Source of the DNA: Dehalococcoidia bacterium
GTDB lineage: Bacteria; Chloroflexota; Dehalococcoidia; UBA6926
Assembly (NCBI GenBank): GCA_965220565.1
Contig: CBDCQG010000001.1
Span: 691,473 to 755,472, forward strand
DNA length: 64,000 bases
Reading direction: 5' to 3'
The position numbers and the translations under genes were made by a program. Shown piece after piece: positions 1,736 through 44,504 of this stretch; position 1 is the first letter of the stretch, and every line of letters begins with the position of its first letter. The notes under the pieces were generated by a model, which searched no databases, was not told where the DNA came from, and was given only the letters and a program-made list of their open reading frames with translations.

Positions 1736-1758
1736 TACCACTCTCGGTATAGTTAGAT

Positions 1759-19537: not shown

Positions 19538-19567
19538 GGTTATACTCTCCGCGCGTGAAGGGCGTTG

Positions 19568-19828: not shown

Positions 19829-19867
19829 TGCTGTTTTACCTTTTCTCTTTGCGTCCGGGATGCCGGG

Positions 19868-20224: not shown

Positions 20225-20272
20225 TCATACGTGCCGCCCCTGCCTGCGGTCAAGGAGACAGCCCGAGTATCC

Positions 20273-20896
20273 CTATCTGACGCTCCACCATTTCACAGGG
20301 TTGTCCATGTCCAGTTCCTCCAGCGTTTCAAGCCGGATGATCCGGATCTTTGGCTCCTCCCCGCGATTCACCTCAAGCAGCCCCACTGTCCCGACAAGAT
20401 GATCAAGGTTGTGGGGCAGGGTAGGGCTTCCCGGGTTCACGCACAGCACGTCCCTGACCGTAACGACCTCCTCCGTGTGCGTGTCTCCGAAGACGATGAT
20501 GTCCACGGCACGTCCGAACTCGTGACCCATCACGGATTCGATGGTGCGATGCGGTGGAAACTCCGGAATCGCCAACCCGTGCGTCAATCCGATGGAGAAT
20601 CCCTCAACCTCCATCACGCGTGTGCGTTCGATGCGCGGGTCCGTGATCTTCCGGAAGAAATCACCATTCCCCTCGCACGCGTACACGGGCGCGGCGCGTT
20701 CCAGATCATCGAGGCATGACGGGCTGTAGATGTCGCCCGCATGGAGGATGAACTCTGCCCCCGCGCCGGAGAAAATCTCCAACGCGCTCTCCGGCAGCGC
20801 CAACGGCGCCTCCGGCACGTGCGTATCGGAAATCAGGCCGATGATCAAAAGGGTGTCTCGGTCACTTCCTGAGGGTGACGCGGGCGTCCTTCTCAC
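20273..20896 (-). CDS. YfcE-like metallophosphoesterase (calcineurin-like phosphodiesterase)
   Basis: It has the GLISDTH and GD...HGH motifs. 207 aa. Confidence 0.7.
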   Translation of the reverse strand: MRRTPASPSGSDRDTLLIIGLISDTHVPEAPLALPESALEIFSGAGAEFILHAGDIYSPSCLDDLERAAPVYACEGNGDFFRKITDPRIERTRVMEVEGFSIGLTHGLAIPEFPPHRTIESVMGHEFGRAVDIIVFGDTHTEEVVTVRDVLCVNPGSPTLPHNLDHLVGTVGLLEVNRGEEPKIRIIRLETLEELDMDNPVKWWSVR

Positions 20897-24275: not shown

Positions 24276-25163
24276 TTAGCGTCGGGCGCGAGGGCCAAAG
24301 GGCTCCGGCTGGAATGGGGCGTCGCGCGTCTCGATATAGCTGCGGAGTCCGCCCTTTTCGTTTGCATCGTCCAAGTGTCGCTTGAAATCCTCCCGCTGGG
24401 ACGTGTGGGCGAGGGCGGCAAGCTCCGCGTTCAGGCTCCACGCCTTGTCCAGCCCCATCATCTCCAGCCCCATCGTCGCGACATGCAGGTTGATCTTGAC
24501 GGTCTCCGGCGACACAAGCGCGATGCGCTCGCCGATGTAGAAACACTCCTCCAGCAGGTCATCGTGCGGCACAACCTTGTTGACAAGGCCGATGCGCAGC
24601 GCCTCTTGCGCGTCGATGTGGTCGCCGGTGAGGGCGTATCGCAGGGCGTTCTTGTAGCCCGCCAGCAGCACCCAGATGAAGTTGGTGTTGGAGATGTGGC
24701 GCACCTCCGGCTGGCCGAAGACGGCGTTCTCCGATGCGATGGTGATGTGAGTTGTGAGCGCGAGCCATGAGGCCGCGCCGAGCGCCCAGCCGTTGATTGC
24801 GCCGATGATGGGTTTGGGATACTCCCAGCGCCGCATCTGGTCGCGGATGCCGTTGCGGTCGCCATCACGCCACGAATCCAGGAATTCGGCGATGGACTGC
24901 CCCTCGCGCAGGCCATAGGGCCAGACGACCGGCGGCAGTGAGCCGTCACGGGAGCCGCGCATATTCGCGCCGGCGGAGAAGGCTCGCCCCGCGCCGGTTA
25001 GGATGATGTAGCGAACCTCATCATCCTGTTCGGCGTCATCCAGTGCAGCGTTCAGGTCGGCGCGCAGCTCGACGCTGAGCGAGTTCATCGCCTCAGGCCG
25101 GTTCAGGGTGATCAACGCGCCCTTCCGCTGCTTCTCATACAGGATATTTTCGTATGTGGTCAT
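24276..25163 (-). CDS. Enoyl-CoA hydratase/isomerase (crotonase) family protein
   Basis: It has the crotonase fold motifs LTGAGRAFSAGANM and the oxyanion-hole region. 295 aa. Confidence 0.75.
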   Translation of the reverse strand: MTTYENILYEKQRKGALITLNRPEAMNSLSVELRADLNAALDDAEQDDEVRYIILTGAGRAFSAGANMRGSRDGSLPPVVWPYGLREGQSIAEFLDSWRDGDRNGIRDQMRRWEYPKPIIGAINGWALGAASWLALTTHITIASENAVFGQPEVRHISNTNFIWVLLAGYKNALRYALTGDHIDAQEALRIGLVNKVVPHDDLLEECFYIGERIALVSPETVKINLHVATMGLEMMGLDKAWSLNAELAALAHTSQREDFKRHLDDANEKGGLRSYIETRDAPFQPEPFGPRARR

Positions 25164-28852: not shown

Positions 28853-29368
28853 CTACCCACCTACAAACCGCAGCAGCAGGCCGAGCAGGATGACGATCGG
28901 GCCGAGGACGAACAGGATGTTGGTGGGGGAGGCGAGGCGAGCCAGCGATGATCCGGCATCTGCAACGAGCCGTGTGAGAGGCCCGGGCAGGATCTCACTC
29001 CAAAGTCCTTCAACAGGGGACGAGCGACGACGGGGGCCTCTTCTGCTGAGCGAGATGGCGATGAGAAACATGGCTGCGGAGAGGACGAGCTTGACGGCCA
29101 GAATCACCGCGTAACCAAGGCCGATTTCCTGCGTGAGACGGTCATAGATAAGCAGCGCGCCGGTGATGATCAGCACCCACATCGAGAGATCGACAGTCTG
29201 CTTGAATCGTTCTCCAATCAGGCGGGGAAGATCGGGAGAGCCGACCCCGCTCTGCCGCATGGCAGGCCGCAACGCTGCCAGGTAGAAGATGTTGCCGCCC
29301 ACCCACGCGACGGTTGCGATGACGTGCGCCCACCGCGTGACAAGGACGGTCACTTCAAGAAAAGTCAT
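28853..29368 (-). CDS. Small polytopic membrane protein (DUF4149/CopD-like fold)
   Basis: 171-aa ORF with 4 predicted TM helices. Confidence 0.4.
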   Translation of the reverse strand: MTFLEVTVLVTRWAHVIATVAWVGGNIFYLAALRPAMRQSGVGSPDLPRLIGERFKQTVDLSMWVLIITGALLIYDRLTQEIGLGYAVILAVKLVLSAAMFLIAISLSRRGPRRRSSPVEGLWSEILPGPLTRLVADAGSSLARLASPTNILFVLGPIVILLGLLLRFVGG

Positions 29369-29440
29369 GGAGACAGTGTACGGGGAGGCGTGCAGAACCC
29401 GCGGACGGACCGCTAATCGTGTAACGACCGAAGCAGAACC

Positions 29441-30592
29441 CTAGACGCCAAGCGGTCGTCGGGCGTGTTCCAGATGTCCGACGTGGTGGCTTTCCTCATC
29501 GCATAGCTGAGTGGAGCGTTCGAGCTGCACGGTTACGTGGTCAATGCCATATCTTTGCTTGACAATGTCCTGCATCTGCTGAAGAAGTTCCTGATCGGAG
29601 CCCGGGTGCTCAGGTTCGATGAGCACGTGCGCGGTGAGCACCTCGTTGCCGGACGTAATCGTCCACACGTGCACGTCATGAATGACGGTCACCCCCGGCA
29701 GTTCTTCGATATCGGAGCAGAGTTTGTAAACGTCGATGTGCTCCGGCACTCCTTCCAGCAGCACGCGGAAGACCTGCATCACCAGGCTCCATGAGCTATA
29801 GAGAATGAGGAGGCCGATGACCACGCTGAGGATGGGGTCGATCAGCGTCCAGCCCGTCAGGATGATGACGATGCCTGAAATGACGACACCCACGGAACCC
29901 ATCAGGTCTGCCAGCACGTGCTGGAATGCGCCCTCCACGTTGATGCTGTGGCCGGATGAGCGGTGGAGAATCCATGCGGCGACAATGTTGACCAACAGAC
30001 CGCCGATACCGACGAGCAGAACCGGCCAGCCGTCCACATGGTGTTCGTCACGGATGAATCTGTGGTACGCCTCCCAGAAGATCCACCCGACGATCAGCCA
30101 CAGCGCCAGGGCGTTCATCAACGCCGCGAGTATCTCCGTTCGGTAGTAGCCGTACGTGCGCTCGATGGTGGCGCCGCGCTCCGCGATCCACATGGCGAAC
30201 AGCGCCATGCCGATTGCCGCGGCGTCCGTGAGCATGTGCCCGGCATCCGCGATGAGCGCCAGGCTTCCTGAAACGACGCCCCCGATAACCTCCGCGACCA
30301 TATAGGTCGAGATGAGGATCAGCGCAAAGAAGAGATTGCGGCGGCTTGCTCCCCGGAGATCGTGGGCGTGATCGTGGCCCGCGTGGCCGTGTCCATGGTC
30401 ATCATGGTCGTGGTCGTCGTGGCCGTCATGATCGTGGCCATCGTGGGTGTCATGGTCGTGGTCATCATGGGCGTCATGGTCGTGGTCATCATGGGCGTCA
30501 TGGTCGTGGTCATCATGAGCGTCATGATCATGATCTGCGTGTCGATGGTCTTCCTGGTCACTGCGAGCCATGGCGCTTCCGTCCCCTCTCAC
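29441..30592 (-). CDS. Cation diffusion facilitator (CDF) family metal efflux transporter with long His/Asp-rich N-terminal tail
   Basis: It has the CDF TM core (IADAGHMLTD, HVWTITSG) and the C-terminal cytoplasmic domain. The N-terminus carries about 60 aa of (H-D-D-H-D-H-D-A)n. Confidence 0.85.
   Translation of the reverse strand: MRGDGSAMARSDQEDHRHADHDHDAHDDHDHDAHDDHDHDAHDDHDHDTHDGHDHDGHDDHDHDDHGHGHAGHDHAHDLRGASRRNLFFALILISTYMVAEVIGGVVSGSLALIADAGHMLTDAAAIGMALFAMWIAERGATIERTYGYYRTEILAALMNALALWLIVGWIFWEAYHRFIRDEHHVDGWPVLLVGIGGLLVNIVAAWILHRSSGHSINVEGAFQHVLADLMGSVGVVISGIVIILTGWTLIDPILSVVIGLLILYSSWSLVMQVFRVLLEGVPEHIDVYKLCSDIEELPGVTVIHDVHVWTITSGNEVLTAHVLIEPEHPGSDQELLQQMQDIVKQRYGIDHVTVQLERSTQLCDEESHHVGHLEHARRPLGV
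30355..30540. repeat. 24-bp tandem repeat within the CDF gene (catggtcgtggtcatcatgggcgt x3 plus degenerate copies) encoding the HDDHDHDA repeats
   Basis: There are three perfect copies at 30451-30522, with decayed copies on both sides. Confidence 0.8.
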
Positions 30593-30714
30593 AGGACATC
30601 ACGTCCGCACTATAGGATCAACTATGTGTTCCGGAGTCTCTGCCTGGCCGTCCGGCAGCCATTGAACCGGATAGAAAACTCCGTGGCGCTCTGCTGGCGT
30701 GATTGGTCGGGTTG

Positions 30715-30762
30715 AGCCCCCGGGCCAAAAAACGAATAGCCACCGGAATCGGCGGCTATTCA
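30715..30762 (-). terminator. Rho-independent terminator downstream of the small His/Cys-rich peptide gene
   Basis: On the minus strand the hairpin GAATAGCCGCCG-attc-CGGTGGCTATTC is followed by GTTTTTTGG. Confidence 0.6.
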
Positions 30763-30780
30763 CTCAGTCGGCGGATGAAA

Positions 30781-30909
30781 CTAGCTGCCGTCCGCGTGGT
30801 GCTCGTGTTCATCGCACTCGTGCGGGTCATGCACGTGATTCGGCTCGTCTGCATGGTGCTCGTGCTCGTCGCACTCATGCTGATCGTGCTGATGTGCTGC
30901 GCTCGTCAT
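30781..30909 (-). CDS. 42-aa His/Cys/Glu-rich putative metal-binding peptide (internal duplication HECDEHEHHAD x2)
   Basis: The ATG at 30909 has a GGGAGG RBS 7 nt upstream. The product is MTSAAHQHDQHECDEHEHHADEPNHVHDPHECDEHEHHADGS. The gene has its own terminator. The ORF track's 108-aa version extends upstream without a plausible RBS. Confidence 0.6.
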   Translation of the reverse strand: MTSAAHQHDQHECDEHEHHADEPNHVHDPHECDEHEHHADGS

Positions 30910-31100
30910 CGCAACCTCCCATTTCCTTACGGCTGTCGGTTGTTCTGAATCCACTCTGTGCACGATGTAGATATGTGGCAAGGGTTTCGTGATACAAAGT
31001 ATCGCAATAGTCACTGACTGATATGAGGTATCCATAGGACAACCGAGGTTGCCGCAGGCCCCGCAAAGGGCGCGGCCCAGCCTGACTCCCCGCCCCCGTC

Positions 31101-31140
31101 CGCTCACCCTGAGCCTGTCGAAGGGCGAACGGACGGGCAG
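31101..31140. repeat. Interspersed repeat, family C (CTCACCCTGAGCCTGTCGAAGGGCGAACGG-like), intergenic
   Basis: cgctcaccctgagcctgtcgaagggcgaacggacgggcag. It resembles the widespread 'SLSKGE' type of small interspersed element. Confidence 0.5.
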
Positions 31141-31160
31141 GTTTTCTTACGGCTCTCCCG

Positions 31161-32072
31161 CTATGTCCGCGAGAGGCTTTGGACGTATTCCCGCACTGAC
31201 GCGGCGCACTCCTCAGGTCTCTCGAAGATCATGAAGTGGGAAGCTTCGGGCATGAAATCGTAGTTGATGCTGAGGATGTCGCTGAGGTCCATCGTCGGCA
31301 GATACGAGTAGGGCAGAGTGGGGTCGGCTCCCACCACCTTGACCGGACACACGATCTTGTCAAAGTCCACGGACACGGCGAAAACACCGGCATACTCAAC
31401 AACCTGCGCCTCATACTCGCGGGGGCACCGAAGTTCAAAGCCCTGTCCGTCGGCGGACTCGCCAAGAGTGGTCTCGGCCACGAGGGATGCGATTCCCGGG
31501 ACGACATTCTTGAATGTCGGCATAAACGGCAGCACGTCCGCAAAATCGGAACGCGTCTTGTATCGCTCAGTGCGCGTCCTGGTCAGATTGGCGGCGCGAG
31601 TCGCGGCAACCTCAAATTCTTCGTAGGACACACCCGGCCTGCAGACTGGCGGGTCGAACAGGTAGAGGCCGGATAGTCCATCCCCTCTTTGAGCGGATAG
31701 CAGGGCGACCAGCGCCGAGATGGAGTGGAAAACGCCAAAAGTAGGCTTGTCTCCATACTCCTCACGGATCGCGTCCAGCACCCGATCGTAATCACGGATG
31801 AACGTTGGGAGGTTGTGATTTGCAATGTCGCCCACGCTGTTCCAGCCATGATTTCTCAGGTCGTAGATGATGATGTCAAAGTCGTCCAGCAGGTTTGACC
31901 AGAACGGATAGTACAGGTCGATGGCCAGGCCGTTGCCATGGCACAGAATGAGTCGCGGCCCCTGGGGGTTGCCATGGCGTCTCAGCCGGATGACTGTGTT
32001 CTCATCGACCGTCACGTCATGGACGGACGTCGGCTCAGGAACCTGCCAGACAGGCTGGGGCGTTTCGGTCAC
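31161..32072 (-). CDS. Alpha/beta hydrolase (candidate chain-release thioesterase/hydrolase of the PKS operon)
   Basis: It has an HGNG oxyanion region and a GxSxG-like nucleophile elbow (VFHSISALV). 303 aa. It overlaps the PPTase gene by 4 nt. Confidence 0.65.
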   Translation of the reverse strand: MTETPQPVWQVPEPTSVHDVTVDENTVIRLRRHGNPQGPRLILCHGNGLAIDLYYPFWSNLLDDFDIIIYDLRNHGWNSVGDIANHNLPTFIRDYDRVLDAIREEYGDKPTFGVFHSISALVALLSAQRGDGLSGLYLFDPPVCRPGVSYEEFEVAATRAANLTRTRTERYKTRSDFADVLPFMPTFKNVVPGIASLVAETTLGESADGQGFELRCPREYEAQVVEYAGVFAVSVDFDKIVCPVKVVGADPTLPYSYLPTMDLSDILSINYDFMPEASHFMIFERPEECAASVREYVQSLSRT

Positions 32073-32866
32073 GCGAGCGCGTCCTCAATCCGGGACGACG
32101 GCACCGCTTCAATGGCGAGCGCGCCGACGAAATCGCCGGCGCTGAACCTGTGCAGCCGCCAGCACACATCCGGGAACTCCGGCAGTCGGACCTGGCCGGT
32201 GACTGCGCCTCCGCGCATGGCGGCCGGTGTTTCTATGCACTGCAGGTTCGCGGAGAGACCGATGCCGGTGGCCTTGATGATTGCCTCCTTGAGGGTCCAT
32301 ATCTCAAAGAATGCTCGTGCGTCAAAGTCTCTGTCCGTGCTTGAAACCGCAGCCTGCTCCTTCGTACTGAAAGTCGATTCGATGATTGCATCAAATCGGA
32401 ATTCCTGGTTGATCTCTTCGATATCGATGCCAACCTGGTGATCCGGCGAAATGGCTAGGACGCCATGGTCGCCGCTATGACTCACATTAAAGTGGAGCGG
32501 TGCGGGGACCCCGTCGACGTATGCCCGCGGCTTGCCTCGTTCCACCCAGCCAAACTCAAGCTCCTCATTGTCGCAGTTGAGAGTGTCGCAGAGAACCGCT
32601 CGCAGCGCGGCGCGGCTGAGCGCAAAACGCCGCCTCGGAGCCCCGGGGTGATAGCGTGTCCATCGTTCGCGTTCCCAGTCGTTCAGGAACTGCAAAGCCC
32701 CGGACTCTCGCGCCGCGTCCGGCGACAGATCGACATGAGTAACATCGACGCCGTCAAACTGCGCGAAGCAAGACCACCACTGATTGGCTGTGTTGGTGCC
32801 CATCGCTTCAATTGTATGCGGATAATTGCGATTCGGACTAATTGACGCCAAGAGGGAGCAGCCCAT
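32069..32866 (-). CDS. Sfp-type 4'-phosphopantetheinyl transferase
   Basis: It has the FNVSHSGDHGVLAIS and GIDIEEI motifs. 265 aa as called, so the start is uncertain. Confidence 0.75.
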   Translation of the reverse strand: MGCSLLASISPNRNYPHTIEAMGTNTANQWWSCFAQFDGVDVTHVDLSPDAARESGALQFLNDWERERWTRYHPGAPRRRFALSRAALRAVLCDTLNCDNEELEFGWVERGKPRAYVDGVPAPLHFNVSHSGDHGVLAISPDHQVGIDIEEINQEFRFDAIIESTFSTKEQAAVSSTDRDFDARAFFEIWTLKEAIIKATGIGLSANLQCIETPAAMRGGAVTGQVRLPEFPDVCWRLHRFSAGDFVGALAIEAVPSSRIEDALA

Positions 32867-32933
32867 GACTGCTCCCTCTCGCTTTGGCGCCCTTATTTCA
32901 AGTGGCCGCTTCTTGAAAGTGTGGGTGCGTGAA

Positions 32934-33179
32934 TCACGCAGCCTTCGATTCGATATAACCGATCAGATCGCCGACATTGGAGAAATTAGCGAAATCTTCA
33001 GGCGCAAGTGTGATGTTGAATTCGTCAGCCACGAGCTTGGCGAACGCAACCACCTGTGCCGACGCGACACCCGCGTCCGCAAAATTCAGTCCCATATCGA
33101 CGGGGCTGTTGGCTTCGCGCCCCTCGATCTCCAGGTTCTCGTCAATCAGCTTGCGAACCCTCTCTTCGGTTGTTGCCAT
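32934..33179 (-). CDS. Discrete acyl carrier protein (ACP/PCP-like)
   Basis: The 81-aa product starts from the ATG at 33179 with an AAGGAG RBS 8 nt upstream. It has a four-helix carrier-protein pattern. The region around the expected phosphopantetheine Ser is atypical (LNFADAGVAS). Confidence 0.55.
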   Translation of the reverse strand: MATTEERVRKLIDENLEIEGREANSPVDMGLNFADAGVASAQVVAFAKLVADEFNITLAPEDFANFSNVGDLIGYIESKAA

Positions 33180-33240
33180 TTTCAGGCTCCTTTCTCGTAA
33201 GCGAATCGCGACCAATTCTCATCCAATCGTTACGTAGAGT

Positions 33241-36200
33241 TTATCGTTTTACGGCTTTCTTCTCCACCCAGAACCGTCGACGCTGGAACGGGTAGCCGGG
33301 CAGCCTGATCTTTCGTCGTTCCTCCCCGGTGAATAGCCTGCTGAAGTCCACGTCATGCCCCGCCTCATAGGCCCGGGCCATGGCGTCCACCGTGCCAGAA
33401 TCCGTGTCGCCTGTGCTATCCACTGCCGCTGACTCGCTATCCCGGGTACCCGTTTCCTGTCCGGTGTCACCGGACGGAGAACCGGCATCCACAAGGCGTT
33501 CGAGGCCGCTCCGCAGCTCGTCTTGGTCTCTGAAAATCACGCACGCACGATGTGTAAAGTGACTTCGGCCGATGGACGCCGTCCACGCCATGTCTGCGAG
33601 CATGTCCGCAGTTGAGGCGCCGTCTTGGCCGCCATTGTCCAGCCACTCCAGGTAACTCGCTGCGAGGTCGCTCAGCGCGGCAGGATTCTTTGCCGAAAGG
33701 GGCAGAAGGCGTGCCGGCGGCTTTGTGGTCGCTTGCAGGTCGTCGGGGTTCAAACCGTTCTCAGCCGTGTAGCCTTCCACAATGACGTGCGCATTCGCGC
33801 CCGTCATGCCAAAGGTATTGATCCCGGCAATAGGGGCACGCGCGCCGTTGCCCGGCCACTCCTCCGCGTCCAGGGCAATCTGCAAAGGCATCTTCTTCCA
33901 ATCAATCTCCGGGCTTGGCGTGCTGAAATGGAGATGCCTGGGGATGAGATTGCGATTCATGGACAGCACGACCTTGATGAGGCTGGCCATGCCGGAGGCC
34001 GCTTCAAGGTGACCCACGTTCGTCTTGACTGATCCAAGGGTCAGCGGTTGGTCGCCGGGCCTGTCCTTCCCGTACACGTTTGCAATGGCATTCGCCTCAA
34101 TCGAATCGCCAAGTGGCGTCCCGGTCCCGTGAGCCTCAAGGTAATCAACGTCGGACGCAGAGATGCCGGACCTCTCCAGCGCCTCTCGCATAACCTTTTC
34201 CTGCGCCACGCCATTGGGGCTCGTGAAACTGAATCCCGCGCCATTCTGGTTGACTGCGGAACCCCGTACGACGCCCCAGATGCGATCCCCGTCTCTCTCC
34301 GCGTCGCCAAGCCGCTTGAGTATGACGAAACCGCAACCCTCGCCGCGCACGTAACCGTCGCCGGACGCGTCGAAGCTCGCCGTCTTGCCGCTCAGAGACA
34401 GCACGCCCAATTCCGCAAGGAACGTTGACGTTGACTGCGACAGCGCGATGTTCACGCCTCCCGCCAGGGCAAGATCAACCTCTCCGCGCTGCAGGGAGAC
34501 CACGCCCTGGTGCACTGCGGCGAGCGATGACGTGCAGGCAAGGTCGATCGGCACGGCAGGCCCTTGCAGCCCGAACGTGAACGCGATCCGGCCGACGGCC
34601 ATGCTTGGAATGGTTCCAAAGATGTCCTGGCCGCCGTTCATGGCAAGCACACTGCGGTACTCGCTGCCGCTGATGCCGGCATAGACGCCGGTTTGGCTTC
34701 CGCGCAATGCGTCCGGGTCGATCCCCGCATCCTCCAGCGCCTGCCACGCTGTTTCGAGGAGTAGGCGCTGCTGCGGGTCCATGGTGCGGGCCTCGATAGG
34801 CGCAATGCGGAAGAATCGGGCGTCGAATTCGTCAATATGATCCAGGAACGCGCCAAGACGCTCATAGGTGTTCTGCGCGGCGGGATCCCCAAAAACGCCC
34901 CTGTAGTCGCCGCCGTCCGTGCGCCCGTCCGTAACGGCGGACTCGCCGTTCTCAAGCAGACGCCAGAAGGCATCGAGGTTCTCTGACCCCGGGAAACGAC
35001 AGGCCATGCCGACGATGGCGATCGCATCGTCACCCGGACGCGGGCGCGGAGGCGACTCCGGCGTCCGCTCGTCTGCGGCGGCAACAGTTGTCGTGCTGCC
35101 GGCAGCCGCCCCCGGTTCACCGACTTCCTCGGCCAGATAAACTGCCAGCCGCGTGATGCTTGGGTAGTCAAAGACCACGGTGTTGGGCGCGACATAGAGA
35201 CCTTTGAGAGCGCTGTTGATGTTGTTCCTCAAAGCCACCGCCATGAGTGAGTCCATGCCAAGATCGGAGAACTCTGCTCCCGGGTTTGGTTGGGAGGGCA
35301 TGCGCATGATCGCCTGCAATTCATGCTGCAGAAACTCGGTAAACACGCTTTCGCGCTGCTCCAACGGCACGCCGCTGAGGCGGGCAGGCAAGTCATCCAT
35401 GGAGTCACCCGCCGAGGCAGAATCAGACTCGTCGGCAGCCGTGAATCTCTGCAGCATCGCCGGCGGATTCTGCATGTTTGACCGTATTGATTCCCAGTCG
35501 ATGGCGACGGCAACCGAATTGGTCCAGTCCTGCTTGATCAGGAACTCCAGCGTTTCAATGCCGCGTTCCGGCGTGATCCACCGGGAGCCTCTCTCTGCAA
35601 GCAGCTCGCCGATCCTCTCCCGCTGCTCCTCTGCCTCGCCAACCTCCGACCATGCGCCCCACGCGATCGCCTGGCCGGTCAGCCCCAGAGCCCGGCGATG
35701 TCGAACCAACTGGTCAAGGAATGTGTTGGCCGCGGCGTGATTCGACTGCCCCGGGTTCCCGAGGATTCCCGCCGCGCTTGAGAAAAGCACAAAGAGATCG
35801 AGGTCTCGATCCATCGTGGCGCGATGCAGATGCCATGCGCCCAAAACCTTTGGCCGGAGAATCTGCTCGAATCGCTCCCACGTTTGATTGCCGACCACGC
35901 CGTCCGAAAGCACACCAACGCTATGGATGACACCCGCGAGCGGCGGCAGTGATTGGTCGATACGCGTGAGCATTGCGTCGATTGCAGTGCTGTCCGTCAC
36001 GTCTGCAATCTCAACCTGTACGGTGACGCCGCGGGCGCGCAACTCGTCTATCGCATCCTGCGCTTCCGGGTCAGGATCACGCCGGCCGTTGAGCACGATT
36101 GCTCCTGCGCCCTTGTCCGCGAGCCAGCGCGCGACGGTGATGCCAATTCCGCCCAGTCCGCCGGTGATGAGGTATGTGCCGTCTTCTCGCAGGCGTTCAG

Positions 36201-39200
36201 TCTGGAGAGGAGAGTTGGCCAGCGCGATCTTGCCGATGTGCCGGGTATCGCGCATGTACGTGATTGCAGCCGGTGCCTCAGACAATGACCAGCGGGTGTG
36301 CGGGATGGGGGCGAGTGTGCCTGCCTCCATGTCCCGCAGCACCGTCTTCAGTGCCGCGCCGGGTATTTCCGGCTCTTCTCTCTTCAGCCGATCGAGCATG
36401 ATGATGTGGTAATCGACGTCGGGACGCTGTTCGGCCATCTCCTCTTCGGTCAGGATGCCCTCGCGGGCCAACTCGATGAAGCGGCCATTCTGCGCCAGGC
36501 AGGACAGGCTGGCGTCGATGAATCCCTCGCCGGTCAGGCTGTTGAGTACGACGTCGACGCCTTTGCCGCCGGTGTCGCGGAGTATCTCTTCCGCAAACTC
36601 TGTCGAGCGGCTGTTGTAGACGTGCGTGATTCCGAGTGACCTGAGGTACGGCTGCTTGCCGATGCTTGCCGTCGTATAGATCTCCGCGCCTACAGCCTTC
36701 GCCATCTCGATGGCTGCCAGACCCACGCCCCCGGAACCCGCGTGGATGAGCACCGTGTCGCCGGCCTGTAGACGCGCGAGGTCATAGGAAAGGGCGACGG
36801 TCACGAATGCGGTTGGTGCGGAGCCAAGACCCGTCTTCGATATGTTGGGCGGGGCGGAAGCGACAAGTGCCTCCTTGGTGATGATCTCCGGCCCAAACGT
36901 GCTGAACCCGATCCCGGCGACGCGATCCCCAACGGAGACGGAAGAAACGCCATCTCCGATTTCAATGATCTTGCCGACAAATTCCAGTCCGAGGTTGTCT
37001 TCACGTTCGATGCCAATGCTGATGAGCACGTCACGGAAATTGACGCCCACGGCCTCCATTGCGACACGAACCTCATGTGTTTCCAGTTCACGATGTGACT
37101 CAGGCTGCGGATGGACACGGCCGGGGTCGCCTGTTTCATCCGGCATAAGGAACCATTGGCCTTCGTCGGGCAGGGTGAGCCTTTCCGGTACATCGTCTGT
37201 GCGCGCCAACCGGGCAACCAGTCGATAGCCTGATCGGAGCGCGATGTGATTTTCGCCATCGGGCCGCAGCAGTTCATCAACAAGGTCGGCCAGGCGCGGG
37301 CTGTCGCCATCCAGGTCAACAACCTTGGGCTGAAGATCCGCAAGTTCCCTGATGATGACTCTGCCAAATCCCCAGAGGATCGCGCCGGCGGGCTGCGTGA
37401 ACTGCTCCCGTCGGGTGTCTTGCGCGCCTCGTGTCACAAGCCAGGCGCCGCTCTTTGGTTCCGAATTAGAGTCCAGGAGGCCCTGAACCATGGCCAGCGC
37501 GCTCGAACCAACTCGCCGGATGTCATCAGCGAGCCCGTCGGCGTCGATGTCTGACCCGTTCCCGCTCGTGGCAGCCAGGTGGACAACTCCTCGCAGCGGA
37601 ACGTCCTCTGGCAGACTCGCAAAGATCGATCCCCACGCCTCGCGGTCTCCCCTGTCAACGGCTATGCGTGAAACACCGTCAACGGAGCCATCCTCATGTG
37701 GCGCGCCTGCGCCTTTCTCGGTCACAACCAGGACGAGTTGGCTCCGAGACGCCAGTTCAGCCGCCAACTCGTCGGCCATGCCGTCGTCATCCGCGGCGAG
37801 CACCCAGGAACCCGGCTGCTCGACGATCTCGGCAGGGGCAGCGGCGATGATGACGGCGCGGTCAGGACGCTCCGACGAGTCACTCGTCCTGAGGCCGAGA
37901 ACCTGCGGGTCCTCAAAGGCCGTGTCCAGCAGCGCCTGTTCCCAGACGTCAGCGCCCGCAACACCGTGATTGGGCCGATAATGATCGGCAAATCGCCACC
38001 ACCCGTCCAGCGTTCCGAATGTCACGTCCTGCCATCCCTGGCCCTGGATCGACTCAATCGCGACGAGGTGGCCGGACGGCGCGAGAAGTGTCAGACAGTT
38101 CTGCAGGGTCTCGCTGAGAGAGATGGTGTCATGGAGCACGTTGGAGGCGATGACAAGGTCATAGCCGTGAGCGTCAAATCCCTGCTCGGCGGGATCGAGT
38201 TCGATGTTGAGAGGCATGTACGTTATCGCGCCGTCGGCAGTCCCAAATTGTGACTCCGCCTCCGCGAAGAATCCGGCGGAGATATCCGTGTACACGTACT
38301 CAAACCGGCCCTCAGGAAGCTGCGGCAGCACGGACATCGTGGCTGAGCCCGTGCCCGCTCCCACCTCGACAATGCGCAGTGTTCGCGTCTCGGGCAGATT
38401 CTCCAGCAGCGCGGCAATTGTGTCGCGAAGCATGTTGTTGACTGCGCGGGATGCGGGCGTTCGTATGAAGATGTCGGCGGGTGTAGGATCGCCGCTCCCG
38501 AACAACACCGTCAGCGGATCAGCCTGCCCGCGCAGAATATCCGCCAACTCTCCCGCAGCTCGACGGCACAGCGCCACCTCGATGGAGCCGTGAGGATAAC
38601 GCTCCAGCATCTCTGCGGCGAAGGCGTCCGGGTCAGTCGGCAGTTCACCCGGCAGAGAATCCTCTGGGCCAACCAGAACGTGGAAAGCGTCACCGGATTC
38701 TTGCAGGACGCCCGCCCGCGCAAGCAGCTCAAGGATTCTCCTGAACAGCTTGCTGTGCTCGTCCGTGACGCCCAATTCCCGCCTCAGGGTTTCCGGCTCG
38801 ATAACCGCGCCTGCCGTCTGTTGCCAGCCGAGCTTGGTCAGGGTGTCAAGCGCGAATGACCACGAAAGTCGTTCAAGATCGCGCAAAAGCGCGGTTCGAT
38901 CGCTCCAGTCCACGCCTTCCTGCGACAGATACTCCGCGAACGCCGGTGTAGTGGCCTGGATGGAGGACGGTTCCGGCAGGAAATCGGCGGGCTGCACGGG
39001 AGGCAACGGGCAGTCCTCCCAGACGATGTCGTACAGGAGGTCCTGCACGCTCTCCTCCGTCGAGAGCACGCTATCGCGGCTTGCCCGCTTAGCTGTAAAT
39101 CCTGTGATTCCTCCGAGCCGCTCACCTTCCGTCGAATAGATCTCAAGGTCCGCTGCGATGACCTCCGGCACAGTCCGTGCGCCGGAGGCGTCTGCCTGAT

Positions 39201-42200
39201 TGGCGGCTCTCAAGGTTGCGCGGCAGACAACCCTCTCGGGCAAGCCGCCGCTGAGCCACAATCGGTCCCATGCAAAGGGGAGATATGTCGTGCCGCTTGC
39301 CGTCTCATGCGTGGCGCGAGCCGCCGAAACGACCTGCAAGCATGCGTCAAGCAGGATGGGGTGGACGGCCAGGCCGGTGTTGCTCAGTCCCTCCGGCAAG
39401 CTGACCTCTCCGACTGCCATGCCGTTGCCCGTGAATGCCGAATCCACCGTGCGGAACAGGGGACCGAAGTCCAGGTTTGCCTCGCGCTTTGCCCGGTAGA
39501 ACTCTGAAATATCAAGCGATTCCAGGCCGGCCTTCAGGTCGTCAATGGTCACGCGCTCCGCAGCATCAGTGTTATCTGTTGCCGACGACAGCGTGCCCCG
39601 CGCGTGCAGAGTCCACGATTCCTCGCCGCTTCCCTTGCTGTAGATTTCAAACTCGCGAGCGCCTGAGTCGTCCGGAGCCTGCACCATGATTTGCACGGCG
39701 CGCGCACTATCGTCAGGCGAACTCTCCTCATCGGCCTCGCTGAACAGCAGCGGCGCCTGCATCTGCATGTCGTCGATGACGACTCCGCCGGACTCCTCCG
39801 CCCGGAACGCCTCCACAGCCATGACGCCATAGAGGGCCCCTGGCGCGATAACCCGGCCATACACACGGTGGTCGCTCAGCCAGGCGGGATCGTCTGGCAA
39901 CAACTCAGTCTCGAAATAAATCTCTCCGCGCGGCGATTCATGGCGCGTTCCGAGCAGTGGATGATCCGTTGAGGCTCTCTGCCGACGAGGCTCTTCGACC
40001 CAATGGCGATACCGCTGGAACGGATACTCCGGTACGGGAACCCGTCGCCGCGTCTCACCCGCATAGAGGTCACGGAAATCGATAGAAAGCCCGGCCTCGT
40101 ATGCAGCCTTAACCGCGGAGATGAAACCGCGAGTCTGGTCGATTGGCGGCTCGGTTTCATCGTGCGGCGGCCTGACCATGCTGGCAATAACCGGGGGGTC
40201 CTTGGCCGGAGCGCCCGGCGGCCAGCACATGGAGACAATCGCCCCAATGACTGCGCCCGGCCCGATCTCGATGACAAAATCGACTCCAAGTTCTGCCAGC
40301 GATTCAACGCTGGTTCGATACAGGACCTTCTCCCGTGAATGACGCATCCAATAGGCGGCATCGATGGGGACATCCGGATCAACCGGCTTGCCCGTCGCGC
40401 CGCAAATGAACTCGATCTGCGGTGCTCTAGGCTCCTTGACAATTTCACGGACTCTCTCCCCGAGCGGTTCGAGCATCGGCTCCAGCAGACTGCTATGGAA
40501 TGCCGGGCTGGGCGGCATACGCCTAACCCGAACTTCCTTAGCCTCGAATTTCTCGAGGACTGCCTCAACATCCGGTTCAGGCCCGCTGACGACGTGGTTG
40601 ATGCCGTTGTCAACGGCAATCGTCAGCCGGTTGTCGCCGGAGACCTGCTGTTGTTCCGCGATGGCCTCCTGCACGGCGGCCTCTGGAGCGAATACCACGC
40701 CCATTGCCGCACCAAGCGGGAGTCCGCTCATCAACTCTCCGCGCGCAGCAGTGAGGCGGATACCCTCTTCCAGGGTGAACACGCCGGCTGCTTGCGCCGC
40801 CGCGTATTCTCCGAGGCTGTGACCGGCGACCACGGCGGGCGTGACGCCGATGCTCTTCCAGAGGGCAGTGAGCGCGCACTCCACCGCGTAGATAGTGGGC
40901 ATGGCCCATCTCGAATCATCGAGGTCATCTGCCTTGCCGAACATGACATCGAGCAGGGAGACCCCGCGCTCTTTTTTGATGATGCGATCACAGCGGTCGA
41001 GCACGTCTCGCGCAACAGGCTCCGTCTCGTAGAGCGCTTGCGCCATACCCACCCACTGGCTGCCCTGTCCGGTGTAGACAAATCCGATCCTGGCGGGGCT
41101 GCCGACGGGAGATTGAGGAGTCGATTCAATAAGGTTGCTGAGGCCATCCCTCAGTGAGGCGGCTTCGCGGAACGGGATAGCGGCCCGGTAACGGAAATGG
41201 CTGCGGCCGATGCTTGCGGTCCAGGACATATCAGATAGGGCAGGGTCGGATGCCGCAGTCTCCGGAGGCGGGCCTCCCGATGTTTCGTCCAGCGCATTGA
41301 GGTAACGCTCTGCCAGTTCTTGCAGGCTCTCCGGCGACCGTGCGGAAAGCGGCAGCAATCGTGTCGGGCGCTGTGTGACATCCGCAGTGTCGTCAGAAAG
41401 TTGGGTCTCCACCTCGACAGCGGCGCCCACTGGCCACATCGTTGCTGCGCGTGATGCCGGTGCGCTGGCGGGCGCGCCGTACCCCTCGACGATGATGTGC
41501 GCGTTCGTGCCCGACCATCCGAAACCGCTGACACCGGCGCGTGGCGGCCTGCCATCAACTTTCGGCCACTCGGTTGCCTCGGTCGGCACGCGCAGATTGG
41601 CGTTCTCCCAGTCGATCGCCGTTGTGGGGTTCTCAAAATTCAGGTGCTTGGGGATGACGCCGCGCCGCATTCCCAGCACGACCTTCATGACGCCCGCGGC
41701 TCCCGACGCAGGTTCAAGGTGCCCGAAATTCGTCTTGACGGAGCCGATGAACATTGGTTGATCGGCCGGTCGCTGATTTCCATATGCGGCGGTGGCTGCG
41801 CTCAACTCCGCCGGGTCGCCCACCGGCGTGGCGGTTCCGTGCGCCTCCAGGTAGTCCACGTCCACCGGTGTAAGGCCGGCCGAGGACAGCGCATCGCGGA
41901 TGACATTCTCTTGTGACGACGCGCTCGGCACGGTGATGCCCTGGCTCGCGCCGTCCTGGTTGATGGCGGAGCCGCGGATCACACCCCAGATGCGGTCGCC
42001 GTCCCGCTCGGCGTCGCTCAGGCGCTTGAGAACAAGAACCCCGCAGCCCTCGCCGCGGAGGTAGCCGTCCGCGGCCTCGTCAAAGGTGCGGCACACGCCG
42101 TTCGGCGACAGCATCCCTGCTTGCCTGCGCAGATTCATGACCCTCGCGGAAAGGATGGCGTTGACGCCTCCGGCCAGGGCCAGGTTCGCCTCTCCGCGAT

Positions 42201-42813
42201 TCAGGGCGATTACAGCCTGGTGCATGGCAACCAGGGACGATGAGCACGCTGTATCTATGGAAATCGCGGGTCCTTCAAGTCCCAGCGCGTATGACACGCG
42301 GCCAATGGCGGTGTTGAGACTGCTTCCGCTGGCCGCATAGAGGCTGGTGGCAGGATCGTCCGCTTCAATGGACGCGATGGCCGCATACCGGTATTCGGCG
42401 TTGCTTATGCCGCCATAGACGCCGGTGCGCGTTCCCCTGAGACTCTCCGGATCGATGCCCGCGTCTTCAAGGGCACGCCAGCTGGTTTCGAGCATCAGGC
42501 GCTGCTGCGGGTCCAGCAGCTGCGCCTCTACCGGTGAGATTCTGAAGAATTCCGCATCGAACTTGTCGATATCCTCAATGAAAGCCGCGTAGTGCGTGGT
42601 GTCGCTCTGCGTCGGTGGAAGTTCCAGGAACTGACCCATGCGGCCGGGGCTGCCGGAGCCGATCATGCCCTCCGTCCGCACCATCGTCCCGGAGGCCAGC
42701 AAACGCCAGTAAGCGTCGTAGTCCTCGGCTCCGGGAAAGCGGCATGCCATGCCGATGATAGCGATGGGTTCGTTTGCTGCCATACCGCCTCCGAGTTTCA
42801 GGTGGGCTGACAT
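33241..42813 (-). CDS. Type I highly reducing polyketide synthase, 3190 aa: KS-AT-DH-cMT-(psiKR)-ER-KR-ACP-KS(AT-less)
   Basis: KS1 has DTACSSSL / EAHGTAT / NFGHLE. The AT has GHSLGE. The DH has HRVYGRVIAPGA. The C-MT has VEVGAGTGS. The ER has LIHAGSGGVGLAAIEMA. The KR has ITGGLGGIGITVARWL. The ACP has DLGMDSLMAV. KS2 has DLACTSSL / EAHGTGT / NVGHLE. After KS2 come the KS-AT linker and the post-AT YPFQRRRFW linker, but no AT core. Confidence 0.9.
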   Translation of the reverse strand: MSAHLKLGGGMAANEPIAIIGMACRFPGAEDYDAYWRLLASGTMVRTEGMIGSGSPGRMGQFLELPPTQSDTTHYAAFIEDIDKFDAEFFRISPVEAQLLDPQQRLMLETSWRALEDAGIDPESLRGTRTGVYGGISNAEYRYAAIASIEADDPATSLYAASGSSLNTAIGRVSYALGLEGPAISIDTACSSSLVAMHQAVIALNRGEANLALAGGVNAILSARVMNLRRQAGMLSPNGVCRTFDEAADGYLRGEGCGVLVLKRLSDAERDGDRIWGVIRGSAINQDGASQGITVPSASSQENVIRDALSSAGLTPVDVDYLEAHGTATPVGDPAELSAATAAYGNQRPADQPMFIGSVKTNFGHLEPASGAAGVMKVVLGMRRGVIPKHLNFENPTTAIDWENANLRVPTEATEWPKVDGRPPRAGVSGFGWSGTNAHIIVEGYGAPASAPASRAATMWPVGAAVEVETQLSDDTADVTQRPTRLLPLSARSPESLQELAERYLNALDETSGGPPPETAASDPALSDMSWTASIGRSHFRYRAAIPFREAASLRDGLSNLIESTPQSPVGSPARIGFVYTGQGSQWVGMAQALYETEPVARDVLDRCDRIIKKERGVSLLDVMFGKADDLDDSRWAMPTIYAVECALTALWKSIGVTPAVVAGHSLGEYAAAQAAGVFTLEEGIRLTAARGELMSGLPLGAAMGVVFAPEAAVQEAIAEQQQVSGDNRLTIAVDNGINHVVSGPEPDVEAVLEKFEAKEVRVRRMPPSPAFHSSLLEPMLEPLGERVREIVKEPRAPQIEFICGATGKPVDPDVPIDAAYWMRHSREKVLYRTSVESLAELGVDFVIEIGPGAVIGAIVSMCWPPGAPAKDPPVIASMVRPPHDETEPPIDQTRGFISAVKAAYEAGLSIDFRDLYAGETRRRVPVPEYPFQRYRHWVEEPRRQRASTDHPLLGTRHESPRGEIYFETELLPDDPAWLSDHRVYGRVIAPGALYGVMAVEAFRAEESGGVVIDDMQMQAPLLFSEADEESSPDDSARAVQIMVQAPDDSGAREFEIYSKGSGEESWTLHARGTLSSATDNTDAAERVTIDDLKAGLESLDISEFYRAKREANLDFGPLFRTVDSAFTGNGMAVGEVSLPEGLSNTGLAVHPILLDACLQVVSAARATHETASGTTYLPFAWDRLWLSGGLPERVVCRATLRAANQADASGARTVPEVIAADLEIYSTEGERLGGITGFTAKRASRDSVLSTEESVQDLLYDIVWEDCPLPPVQPADFLPEPSSIQATTPAFAEYLSQEGVDWSDRTALLRDLERLSWSFALDTLTKLGWQQTAGAVIEPETLRRELGVTDEHSKLFRRILELLARAGVLQESGDAFHVLVGPEDSLPGELPTDPDAFAAEMLERYPHGSIEVALCRRAAGELADILRGQADPLTVLFGSGDPTPADIFIRTPASRAVNNMLRDTIAALLENLPETRTLRIVEVGAGTGSATMSVLPQLPEGRFEYVYTDISAGFFAEAESQFGTADGAITYMPLNIELDPAEQGFDAHGYDLVIASNVLHDTISLSETLQNCLTLLAPSGHLVAIESIQGQGWQDVTFGTLDGWWRFADHYRPNHGVAGADVWEQALLDTAFEDPQVLGLRTSDSSERPDRAVIIAAAPAEIVEQPGSWVLAADDDGMADELAAELASRSQLVLVVTEKGAGAPHEDGSVDGVSRIAVDRGDREAWGSIFASLPEDVPLRGVVHLAATSGNGSDIDADGLADDIRRVGSSALAMVQGLLDSNSEPKSGAWLVTRGAQDTRREQFTQPAGAILWGFGRVIIRELADLQPKVVDLDGDSPRLADLVDELLRPDGENHIALRSGYRLVARLARTDDVPERLTLPDEGQWFLMPDETGDPGRVHPQPESHRELETHEVRVAMEAVGVNFRDVLISIGIEREDNLGLEFVGKIIEIGDGVSSVSVGDRVAGIGFSTFGPEIITKEALVASAPPNISKTGLGSAPTAFVTVALSYDLARLQAGDTVLIHAGSGGVGLAAIEMAKAVGAEIYTTASIGKQPYLRSLGITHVYNSRSTEFAEEILRDTGGKGVDVVLNSLTGEGFIDASLSCLAQNGRFIELAREGILTEEEMAEQRPDVDYHIIMLDRLKREEPEIPGAALKTVLRDMEAGTLAPIPHTRWSLSEAPAAITYMRDTRHIGKIALANSPLQTERLREDGTYLITGGLGGIGITVARWLADKGAGAIVLNGRRDPDPEAQDAIDELRARGVTVQVEIADVTDSTAIDAMLTRIDQSLPPLAGVIHSVGVLSDGVVGNQTWERFEQILRPKVLGAWHLHRATMDRDLDLFVLFSSAAGILGNPGQSNHAAANTFLDQLVRHRRALGLTGQAIAWGAWSEVGEAEEQRERIGELLAERGSRWITPERGIETLEFLIKQDWTNSVAVAIDWESIRSNMQNPPAMLQRFTAADESDSASAGDSMDDLPARLSGVPLEQRESVFTEFLQHELQAIMRMPSQPNPGAEFSDLGMDSLMAVALRNNINSALKGLYVAPNTVVFDYPSITRLAVYLAEEVGEPGAAAGSTTTVAAADERTPESPPRPRPGDDAIAIVGMACRFPGSENLDAFWRLLENGESAVTDGRTDGGDYRGVFGDPAAQNTYERLGAFLDHIDEFDARFFRIAPIEARTMDPQQRLLLETAWQALEDAGIDPDALRGSQTGVYAGISGSEYRSVLAMNGGQDIFGTIPSMAVGRIAFTFGLQGPAVPIDLACTSSLAAVHQGVVSLQRGEVDLALAGGVNIALSQSTSTFLAELGVLSLSGKTASFDASGDGYVRGEGCGFVILKRLGDAERDGDRIWGVVRGSAVNQNGAGFSFTSPNGVAQEKVMREALERSGISASDVDYLEAHGTGTPLGDSIEANAIANVYGKDRPGDQPLTLGSVKTNVGHLEAASGMASLIKVVLSMNRNLIPRHLHFSTPSPEIDWKKMPLQIALDAEEWPGNGARAPIAGINTFGMTGANAHVIVEGYTAENGLNPDDLQATTKPPARLLPLSAKNPAALSDLAASYLEWLDNGGQDGASTADMLADMAWTASIGRSHFTHRACVIFRDQDELRSGLERLVDAGSPSGDTGQETGTRDSESAAVDSTGDTDSGTVDAMARAYEAGHDVDFSRLFTGEERRKIRLPGYPFQRRRFWVEKKAVKR

Positions 42814-42887: not shown

Positions 42888-44504
42888 TTGACCGGCCGGC
42901 TTAGCTACAGTTGGGGACTACTCCGCGGCGATGTTCTTGGCGGCCTGACCTCCGGCAGCATCGTTCTTCCTGCGGCAATAGGCTACGGCGTGATCTCCGG
43001 GCTTGGCCCCGTTGCGGGTCTGTACGGCGCGGTGGCTGTCAGCTTCTTCGGAGCCATCTTTGGCGGAACACGGGGCATGATCTCCGGCCCGAACATCCTG
43101 GTGACGCTGACGATGGCAGTGACCGTATCGCATTACGCGACGAGCCTCGGCGAAGCATTTCTCGCCGCGATCCTGGCGGGGCTCATCCAGATCGGTTTCG
43201 GCGCTCTGAAGATCGGCCGGTACGTGTCCTACATTCCATACTCGCTTATCGCGGGTTTCTTCACGGCCTTCGGCATCATATTGATCCTGAAGCAGTTCCT
43301 GCTTGGGCTTGGCGCATCAGTGGCCGGCAGCGCCCTGGACAACATCCGCGCATTGCCGGATGCGTTTAGAGAGCCCAACGTGGAAGCCGTTATCGTCACC
43401 GTCCTCAGTGTTGCGCTGGGGGTAGCGTGGCGAGGAAGGCTCCTGAAGATCGCTCCCTCCCAATTCGCCGTGTTGGTTTGCGGAACCGTCACGGCGATTC
43501 TCCTCTTCCAGGGAGCGCCGACGATCGGAGAGATCCCCCGAGAACTCCCCGCGCCGCAACTGCCCGCGCCTGACGTGGACACGCTTCTGCGGATTGCCCA
43601 GCCCGCCTTTGCCATGGCGCTGCTCAGTTCCCTGTCCACGCTCATCGTCGCGCTGCCCCTGGACACCATTACCGGCACGCAGCACAAACCAAACAGGGAA
43701 TTGATTGCTCAAGGCATGGGCAATATCGGCGCGGGACTCATCGGCGGCTTGCCGGGCGGCGTATCCTCCGGCACGTTCGCCGGCGCCTTCAGCGGGGCGC
43801 GAACCCAGGTAGCCGGGCTGACCGTCACGGTACTCATCATCTCCATCATCTTCGTCCTTGGGCCGATTGCGGAGCGCATTCCTCTTGCCGTCCTTGCGGG
43901 CATCCTCATCATCAACGGCTGGAGCATCATCGATTGGCGATTCATCAAGCGGCTGCATCGCGTGCCCGTCGACTACACAATCGTCATGGCCCTGACCTGC
44001 CTCCTTGTGCTCTTTGTGGACATCACTCTCGCCGTGTTTGTTGGCTTTGTCGTGTCATCCCTGGCCGGCGCGCGGCGACGTGGAGAACTGGAAACCCAGG
44101 ACCTCATCTCAATCCCGGTCCTTGACAGCGTGCTGCTTGACGGCGACGAGGCAGACCCGTTTGAGGCGCGCGCCGGCATCGTCATCTTCCCAGATCGCGT
44201 CACGGTGGCCTCAACCCGTGAGGTGAGCCGCATCGTCCGCTCCGACATCCTTGGGCATCAGATCGTCATCTTCGATATGTCCCGCACGTACTTCATTGAC
44301 GATTCCGCGGCCGTGGCGATAGGGGACCTGATCAGGATTGCGGCCGTTCGCCGGCCGGGACGTGTTGTCATCACGGGATTGACGAGGCCGGTCACGGAAA
44401 CCCTCGATGCGTTCGGCCTGCGCGCTGCGATGCCGGACGGGTTGATTATTCCGGACATGGACGCCGCGAGAGCCAGGGTGCGCGACCTGCTGACGAGCAA
44501 GTAA
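42888..44504 (+). CDS. SulP family anion (sulfate/bicarbonate) permease with C-terminal STAS domain
   Basis: It has the SulP TM core (GMISGPN...) and a STAS domain at the C-terminus. It is divergent from the PKS gene. Confidence 0.75.
   Translation: MTGRLSYSWGLLRGDVLGGLTSGSIVLPAAIGYGVISGLGPVAGLYGAVAVSFFGAIFGGTRGMISGPNILVTLTMAVTVSHYATSLGEAFLAAILAGLIQIGFGALKIGRYVSYIPYSLIAGFFTAFGIILILKQFLLGLGASVAGSALDNIRALPDAFREPNVEAVIVTVLSVALGVAWRGRLLKIAPSQFAVLVCGTVTAILLFQGAPTIGEIPRELPAPQLPAPDVDTLLRIAQPAFAMALLSSLSTLIVALPLDTITGTQHKPNRELIAQGMGNIGAGLIGGLPGGVSSGTFAGAFSGARTQVAGLTVTVLIISIIFVLGPIAERIPLAVLAGILIINGWSIIDWRFIKRLHRVPVDYTIVMALTCLLVLFVDITLAVFVGFVVSSLAGARRRGELETQDLISIPVLDSVLLDGDEADPFEARAGIVIFPDRVTVASTREVSRIVRSDILGHQIVIFDMSRTYFIDDSAAVAIGDLIRIAAVRRPGRVVITGLTRPVTETLDAFGLRAAMPDGLIIPDMDAARARVRDLLTSK

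Follow-up and report, generated by a model that had tools for sequence, protein, structure and literature searches.

The analyzed window, a stretch of 64,000 nucleotides from a Dehalococcoidia bacterium (contig CBDCQG010000001.1 of GenBank assembly GCA_965220565.1, positions 691,473 to 755,472), contains a cluster of four genes that encode a type I polyketide synthase (PKS), a free-standing acyl carrier protein (ACP), an Sfp-type phosphopantetheinyl transferase (PPTase), and an alpha/beta hydrolase (Table 1). The four genes are co-directional on the minus strand and their open reading frames (ORFs) are intact; the ORFs and Pfam matches confirm the gene set that had been named in the original prediction. 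Judged by architecture and distribution, the cluster probably belongs to the sup (sponge symbiont ubiquitous PKS) family, and its genes are referred to below as supA- to supD-like.

Table 1. Genes and PKS domains of the supA-D-like cluster and the divergent permease gene; positions are those of the window, residues those of the encoded protein.
Feature	Position	Strand	Length or residues	Pfam match (residues)	Motifs, catalytic residues, and basis
supA-like type I PKS	33241-42813	-	3190 aa		KS1-AT1-DH-cMT-psiKR-ER-KR-ACP1-KS2-linker tail; ORF, Pfam, NCBIfam NF045894
KS1	41479-42771	-	15-445	KS (15-445)	C190, H325 (HGTAT), H365
AT1	40231-41082	-	578-861	AT (578-861)	GHSLGE S666, R691, PAFHS (malonyl-type xAFH motif)
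DH	39070-39963	-	951-1248	DH (951-1248)	HxxxGxxxxP H982, DxxxQ D1156
C-methyltransferase with N-terminal lid	37909-38994	-	1274-1635	Methyltransf_12 (1482-1583)	VEVGAGTG, H1561, E1587
psiKR (structural half of KR)	37144-37647	-	~1723-1890		Placed by alignment to MAS 5bp4
ER	36220-37140	-	1892-2198	ER (1913-2198)	NADPH motif HAGSGGVG
KR	35494-36180	-	2212-2440	KR (2212-2390)	TGGLGGIG, K2322, S2346, H2359 at the catalytic Tyr position, N2363
In-line ACP1	35137-35328	-	2496-2559	PP-binding (2496-2559)	LGMDSL, S2522
KS2	33769-35022	-	2598-3015	KS (~2598-3015)	C2760, H2895 (HGTGT), H2935
C-terminal tail	33244-33768	-		KS-AT linker domains (3036-3109)	KS-AT linker and post-AT linker (YPFQRRRFW), AT core missing
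supB-like free-standing carrier protein	32934-33179	-	81 aa	PP-binding	S40 in GVAS; 81-aa orthologs
supC-like Sfp-type PPTase	32069-32866	-	ORF 265 aa	ACPS, AASDHPPT_N	
supD-like alpha/beta hydrolase	31161-32072	-	303 aa	Abhydrolase_6	
SulP/BicA-type permease	42888-44504	+		Sulfate_transp, STAS	Divergent from the PKS gene

Two gene starts lie inside the raw ORFs. The carrier protein ORF extends over 32934-33215, and its orthologs place the start at the ATG at 33179. For the PPTase, the orthologs (238-245 aa) point to a probable start at M22 (position 32803), which gives a protein of 244 aa. The downstream genes had been described as overlapping by 4 nt; this holds for the PPTase/hydrolase junction (GTGA) only, whereas the remaining junctions are short gaps, including one of 61 nt between the PKS and carrier protein genes. 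In the region 30300-33400, the promoter scan found no promoters, and the terminator scan found one weak terminator-like site within the ACP gene, which is below chance expectation.

The PKS scores above the cut-off for NCBIfam NF045894, a generic PKS model. Its first module consists of ketosynthase (KS), acyltransferase (AT), dehydratase (DH), C-methyltransferase (cMT), psiKR, enoylreductase (ER), ketoreductase (KR), and ACP domains. This order, predicted from the sequence as a layout similar to animal fatty acid synthase (FAS) and mycocerosic acid synthase (MAS), is borne out by Pfam and by the best match among solved structures, which is MAS of Mycobacterium tuberculosis (9d2y). The psiKR region has no Pfam match and was placed by alignment: residues 1723-2429 of the PKS match MAS (5bp4) over its psiKR-ER-KR modifying region. 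The cMT aligns over its full length to the C-methyltransferase of CurJ (5thy, E 6e-64) and retains the GAGTG motif for S-adenosylmethionine (SAM), the His of the NVLH motif, and the Glu 26 residues further on; it looks intact, as had been expected. The motif that determines AT specificity, singled out earlier for a check, is of the malonyl type in AT1 (xAFH) and unlike YASH, as read from established AT specificity rules. Since AT1 is malonyl-type and the His-Glu dyad of the cMT is present, any methyl branches would come from SAM. No degeneration was found in the motifs of the KS, AT, DH, cMT, ER, and ACP domains; the only exception is the KR, where the catalytic Tyr is replaced by His.

One genome per species was scanned with a hydrolase profile. 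This gave a relative for no fewer than 582 species-level genomes, every one of which is an uncultured metagenome-assembled genome (MAG). They belong to Dehalococcoidia/Chloroflexota, Latescibacterota, Acidobacteriota, Gemmatimonadota, Acidimicrobiia, Binatia, Thermodesulfobacteriota/Dadabacteria, and other groups. The bin names COS, RHO, IRC, SB06xx, and Plut resemble those of sponge and coral projects, and a sponge origin is suggested by these names. Domain-by-domain tblastn searches yielded 80 loci that were kept (labeled within L001-L083; L001 and L011 are one contig). The PKS domain order, usually together with the accessory genes, is common to most of these loci, with some gene orders rearranged, and the PKS-ACP-PPTase-hydrolase set was also present in the genomic contexts of two hydrolase homologs. 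Closest to the window are Dehalococcoidia MAGs of ~1.9 Mb genome size, with 87-97% identity across most domains; the nearest genomes are DAOUJJ01, OZ241912.1, and CAZZAN01. Acidic proteins and a NucS-like match had at first raised the idea of a haloarchaeal or actinobacterial origin, which was rejected when the relatives proved to be Dehalococcoidia.

Selection on the PKS gene was estimated as the ratio of nonsynonymous to synonymous substitution rates (dN/dS), calculated pairwise for each domain between the window and four close relatives (L004-L007). The ratio was 0.03-0.45 over all domains tested and 0.03-0.27 in the catalytic and carrier domains, with ~0.07-0.08 for the ER, 0.06-0.11 for KS2, ~0.10-0.12 for the cMT, and ~0.17-0.20 for the DH; it peaks in the C-terminal linker tail (0.25-0.45), the most relaxed segment. 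These low values indicate purifying selection on every domain tested, strongest on the KR, and hence a gene that is being maintained. In some related loci, identities to the window vary along the gene: in L012, KS1 and AT1 are 90% identical and the rest 49-77%, whereas L001, L008, L009, and L011 reach 83% in KS2 and 85-90% in the hydrolase, against 62% in AT1 and 48% in the DH. Such mosaic identities suggest recombination between sup alleles within the PKS gene.

The KR keeps its Rossmann motif, Lys, Ser, and Asn, and its His (GQSNHAAAN; 35737-35739) aligns opposite the catalytic Tyr of the MAS and AmphB KRs. The same substitution at the Tyr position of the YxxxN motif (GQ[AS]NHAAAN) is shared by all of the related loci in which the motif could be located (67 of 67). 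The KR is also the most conserved domain of the PKS and has the lowest dN/dS of all (0.03-0.06), and such strong selection argues for a functional rather than a dead KR.

A second KS after the main module, another element of the original prediction, is recognized by Pfam and has its catalytic residues in place. Among the related copies, the Cys is conserved in 73 of 73 and each His in 72 of 73, with all three present in at least 71. The nearest KS matches are metagenome or MAG proteins, and the best KS2 matches are ~59% identical. No AT follows KS2 in the window PKS, which contains linker remnants only; ~235 aa found after KS2 in L002 are missing from it. In most loci, ~410-450 residues follow KS2 and include an AT-like segment recognized by Pfam, whose nucleophile motif reads GQGPGE, GHGLGE, or GQGLGE; therefore, this second AT lacks the serine. 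Deletion of the AT core has reduced this stretch to 160-197 residues in the window clade as well as in certain Dehalococcoidia and Acidimicrobiia loci. From end to end, KS2 and its tail (residues 2596-3186) match the KS and flanking subdomain of AT-less PKSs (4na1, 4qyr, and 7zma), and, as in those trans-AT modules, the carrier protein depends on loading in trans. The difference lies in origin: within this family, a cis AT decayed and was deleted, which left KS2 without one. Assignment of the window enzyme to the trans-AT PKSs was ruled out, the first module having a cis AT and the window neighborhood no discrete AT gene.

The serine on which the prediction of a discrete carrier protein depended is present, though in a non-canonical GVAS context. 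The pattern G-[VIL]-x-S is invariant in the 74 carrier protein sequences compared, where the Ser is always kept and the usual Asp of the DS motif is replaced by Ser, Pro, or Ala; the best NCBIfam scores are to AcpP-type models. The PPTase is HetI-like in NCBIfam, below the cut-off. The hydrolase has the invariant residues H116-S117 (in an FHSIS elbow), D250, D272, and H279, and more than 2200 homologs, the best 120 of which are 59-91% identical and equal in length. For its structure model, which is of moderate confidence (pLDDT 66.6), Foldseek returned a generic lidded alpha/beta-hydrolase fold and no specific family. The nearest solved structures, lipases and esterases, are weakly similar (E ~2e-4), and the member names looked up for ten hydrolase clusters were limited to the generic 'alpha/beta hydrolase'.

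In the literature, KS amplicons from high-microbial-abundance sponges are dominated by sup enzymes, which are described as small, monomodular, and unusual PKSs. For these enzymes, mid-chain-branched fatty acids have been proposed as the product, which is still unproven. SUP cluster families have been recorded from Chloroflexota, Spirochaetota, Proteobacteria, and Acidobacteriota independently of taxonomy, a sponge-specific KS clade has no MIBiG member, and SupE (ABE03914, on the sponge clone pAPKS18) is a permease of ~557 aa. The supA-E clusters (Fieseler et al. 2007; Hochmuth et al. 2010) are said to have been described by Fieseler and colleagues by FAS-like ORFs, with a methyltransferase (MT) domain in the definition and an architecture suggesting methyl-branched fatty acids; supB, supC, and supD reportedly encode the ACP, the PPTase, and the hydrolase.

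Comparison of the window cluster with these accounts revealed several shared features: (i) the PKS is a small FAS-like enzyme with one full reducing module and a cMT, (ii) the family is spread independently of taxonomy over sponge-symbiont phyla, as seen from the hydrolase relatives, (iii) the PKS comes with a carrier protein, a PPTase, and a hydrolase, both here and at most of the 80 loci, and (iv) the product is uncharacterised. By architecture and distribution, with the published clones compared by description, the four-gene cluster is thus probably a vertically carried member of the sup family. The breadth of this distribution and the recurrence of the gene set overturn the original view of the cluster as an orphan, and the match to a named published family replaces the statement that it has no recognizable relationship to a characterized pathway. 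Whether the architecture is that of a known conserved pathway has a two-sided answer: the family is known and named, and its product is uncharacterised.

As a member of this family, the window cluster is a sub-variant that has lost the serine-less second AT and has no SupE-type permease. A 554-aa Xan_ur_permease gene lies beside the hydrolase gene in ~50 of the 80 loci and is absent from the window and its clade. The earlier remark that tailoring genes are missing therefore holds for the window, whereas the family usually carries a permease. Upstream of the window PKS gene, a SulP/BicA-type permease is found instead; its homologs (62-64% identity) adjoin the hydrolase gene in two other Dehalococcoidia loci, L013 and L030. 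This permease differs from the usual sup permease, is possibly a functional partner of the cluster, and may have replaced its transporter.

The cluster appears to be a stable lineage trait, since its GC content (0.60-0.63) equals that of the flanks and its position is conserved. In eight distinct close Dehalococcoidia relatives, it adjoins some or all of the same genes for a CDF transporter, a 171-aa protein, and a CoA-transferase. The CDF and downstream genes are found at L004 and L007-L010, and only the 171-aa and CoA-transferase genes at L001 and L005. Vertical transmission within this small-genome Dehalococcoidia lineage is most likely, and the proposed compact accessory island is not supported.

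Several observations weigh against membership in the sup family. Literature, cluster-name, and homology searches yielded no reference SupA-D sequence for direct comparison, so the assignment rests on architecture and distribution. A search with the amplicon region of KS1 returned no sponge- or Sup-named matches. The window and its nearest relatives come without a documented sponge source, and neither the window nor its close relatives have an adjacent SupE permease of ~557 aa; because the permease is a variable accessory gene, we did not treat its absence as excluding membership. The chemistry raises further points: every characterized PKS or FAS KR that was aligned has Tyr where this KR has His, so that full reduction is assumed, and a last module without reduction would end in a 3-oxoacyl product instead of a plain fatty acid, which is not a neat match to the proposal in the literature.

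The analysis shows the domains, their catalytic residues, the conserved gene set, and purifying selection. From these we infer a four-step scheme, including whether the module iterates, when methylation takes place, what KS2 and the free carrier protein do, how release occurs, and what the product is. The PPTase would first convert both carrier proteins to the holo form. AT1 would then load malonyl units, and the KS1-AT1-DH-cMT-ER-KR-ACP1 module would iterate in a FAS-like manner, the cMT adding a SAM-derived methyl group in some cycle or cycles to give a saturated methyl-branched acyl chain on ACP1. KS2, competent for condensation and without an AT of its own, would take over this chain and condense it once more with malonyl bound to the free carrier protein; AT1 or a housekeeping malonyl transferase would malonylate that protein in trans. 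Finally, the hydrolase would release or transfer the product. The resulting 3-oxoacyl chain could be either released or passed to the type II fatty acid synthase (FAS II) for elongation, which would leave the branch in mid-chain.

The fungal highly reducing PKS LovB (7cpx) has the same KS-AT-DH-cMT-psiKR-ER-KR-ACP order, and LovG is the trans-acting hydrolase that works with it. As a working analogy, release in the window system may likewise depend on a separate serine hydrolase. The differences are that this system is bacterial, has an intact ER, and adds a further KS and a free-standing carrier protein, and that its hydrolase belongs to another alpha/beta-hydrolase subfamily than LovG.

The conservation across phyla of the His-containing KR, of a second KS without reductive partners, and of a non-canonical carrier protein with a dedicated hydrolase could point to a sup system with distinct end chemistry rather than a plain methyl-branched fatty acid synthase, with the His-KR as a new catalytic variant. 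We regard this idea as unlikely. If true, the product might, for example, be a methyl-ketone or 3-oxo lipid, or the pathway might end in a Claisen-type coupling or in a gated transfer of the chain to the synthesis of membrane lipids.

An unlikely alternative within the same family is that KS2 and the free carrier protein form a bridge to the housekeeping FAS II, with the hydrolase acting as an acyltransferase or editing enzyme. A 3-oxoacyl intermediate built on a short methyl-branched primer would then be elongated by FabG, FabZ, FabI, and FabF, which would put the branch in the middle of the chain in membrane lipids. The AcpP-type scores of the carrier protein, the lack of both reductive partners and an AT for KS2, and the weak similarity of the hydrolase to any characterized enzyme are consistent with such a bridge, as is the link drawn in the literature between the sup family and mid-chain-branched fatty acids, including their abundance. 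However, the GVAS motif is unlike that of AcpP and, together with the dedicated PPTase, suggests an insulated system, and no fab genes surround the cluster in the window.

That the cluster is a decaying or silent relic is very improbable. The His in the KR, the deletion of the second AT, and the odd carrier protein motif would agree with decay, but the first and the last of these, like the serine-less state of the second AT, are conserved throughout the family and are not private lesions; moreover, the ORFs are intact, and the low dN/dS extends to all catalytic and carrier domains, with its minimum in the KR.

Still less credible is a unique, recently acquired orphan island making a novel polyketide unrelated to described systems. 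Such a reading could draw on the absence of a characterized product, the modest identity of the best KS2 matches, and the lack of a specific NCBIfam equivalog beyond the generic PKS model, but it is contradicted by the hundreds of genomes with a hydrolase relative, the shared gene set, the conserved chromosomal position, the GC content, and the existence of a named family with a matching profile.

MAS and the MAS-like mycobacterial PKSs share the iterative KS-AT-DH-psiKR-ER-KR-ACP layout and give the best structure match across KS-AT-DH and psiKR-ER-KR. They differ from the window enzyme in that MAS (i) has no cMT and makes branches from methylmalonyl-CoA, whereas here a malonyl-type AT is combined with a cMT, (ii) has no second KS, free ACP, or hydrolase partner, and (iii) has Tyr in its KR. 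A MAS-like identity was ruled out by the PAFHS motif, the intact cMT, and the absence of FAAL and PapA neighbors. The sponge widespread FAS (swf) is similarly a monomodular reducing PKS/FAS of sponge symbionts. It has a KS-AT-DH-ER-KR-ACP order without MT, the KS motifs DPQ[IV]R and HATGT, and the partners SwfB (reductase-sulfotransferase) and SwfC (radical SAM); the swf cluster was ruled out by the MT of the window PKS, DPQQR in both of its KSs, the HGTAT and HGTGT motifs, and the absence of SwfB and SwfC. A mycobacterial MAS/Pks-type synthase branching via methylmalonyl-CoA, or a swf-type sponge FAS, is thus hardly tenable: MAS is the closest solved structure and the NCBIfam Pks2 and Pks13 models match below their cut-offs, but the AT and KS motifs, the cMT, and the lack of FAAL, PapA, Mmpl, and swf genes nearby all speak against it.

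The annotated flanks of the cluster are transporters and core metabolism, as described before; the wider neighborhood is of housekeeping character, with genes for cytochrome oxidase, MoaE, POR, and a MiaB-like protein, and the tRNA and Rfam scans returned two tRNAs only. In the window, the CDF gene lies directly beside the 171-aa gene (28853-30592), whereas ~6 kb separates them in L004 and L007-L010; in L001, where the CDF gene is missing, the corresponding position is occupied by AddAB-type helicase-nuclease genes. A 42-aa ORF, MTSAAHQHDQHECDEHEHHADEPNHVHDPHECDEHEHHADGS, on the minus strand at 30781-30909, lies between the hydrolase gene and the CDF/ZitB-like transporter gene. It is rich in His, Cys, Asp, and Glu, contains HECDEHEHHAD twice, and is near-identical in L004 and L006-L009, there too just upstream of the CDF gene, whose product has a His/Asp-rich N-terminus. 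Its composition and location suggest a metal-binding peptide associated with the CDF transporter and not with the PKS.

Farther along, the minus-strand stretches 26333-28816 and 24276-25163 belong to a gene series that starts with an 827-aa protein containing CoA-transferase family III sequence twice and continues with a NucS_C-like gene and one for an enoyl-CoA hydratase; these genes are syntenic with those of close relatives. About 9 kb from the cluster, a large serine recombinase with Recombinase and zinc-ribbon domains is encoded at 20862-22103 on the minus strand. The ORFs on its two sides, at 19565-20719 (plus strand) and 22813-24039 (minus strand), have no Pfam match, and together they may form a small integrated element.

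According to the literature, sup clusters rank with the most abundant biosynthetic genes of high-microbial-abundance sponges, and nearly two decades after the family was reported in 2007 their product is still only inferred. The window provides a clean, complete, and compact sup-like copy from a Dehalococcoidia lineage with a genome of ~1.9 Mb and could serve as a template for expression. The comparison of 80 loci adds a set of testable features: H2359 of the KR, C2760 of KS2, S40 of the carrier protein, S117 of the hydrolase, and the serine-less or deleted second AT.

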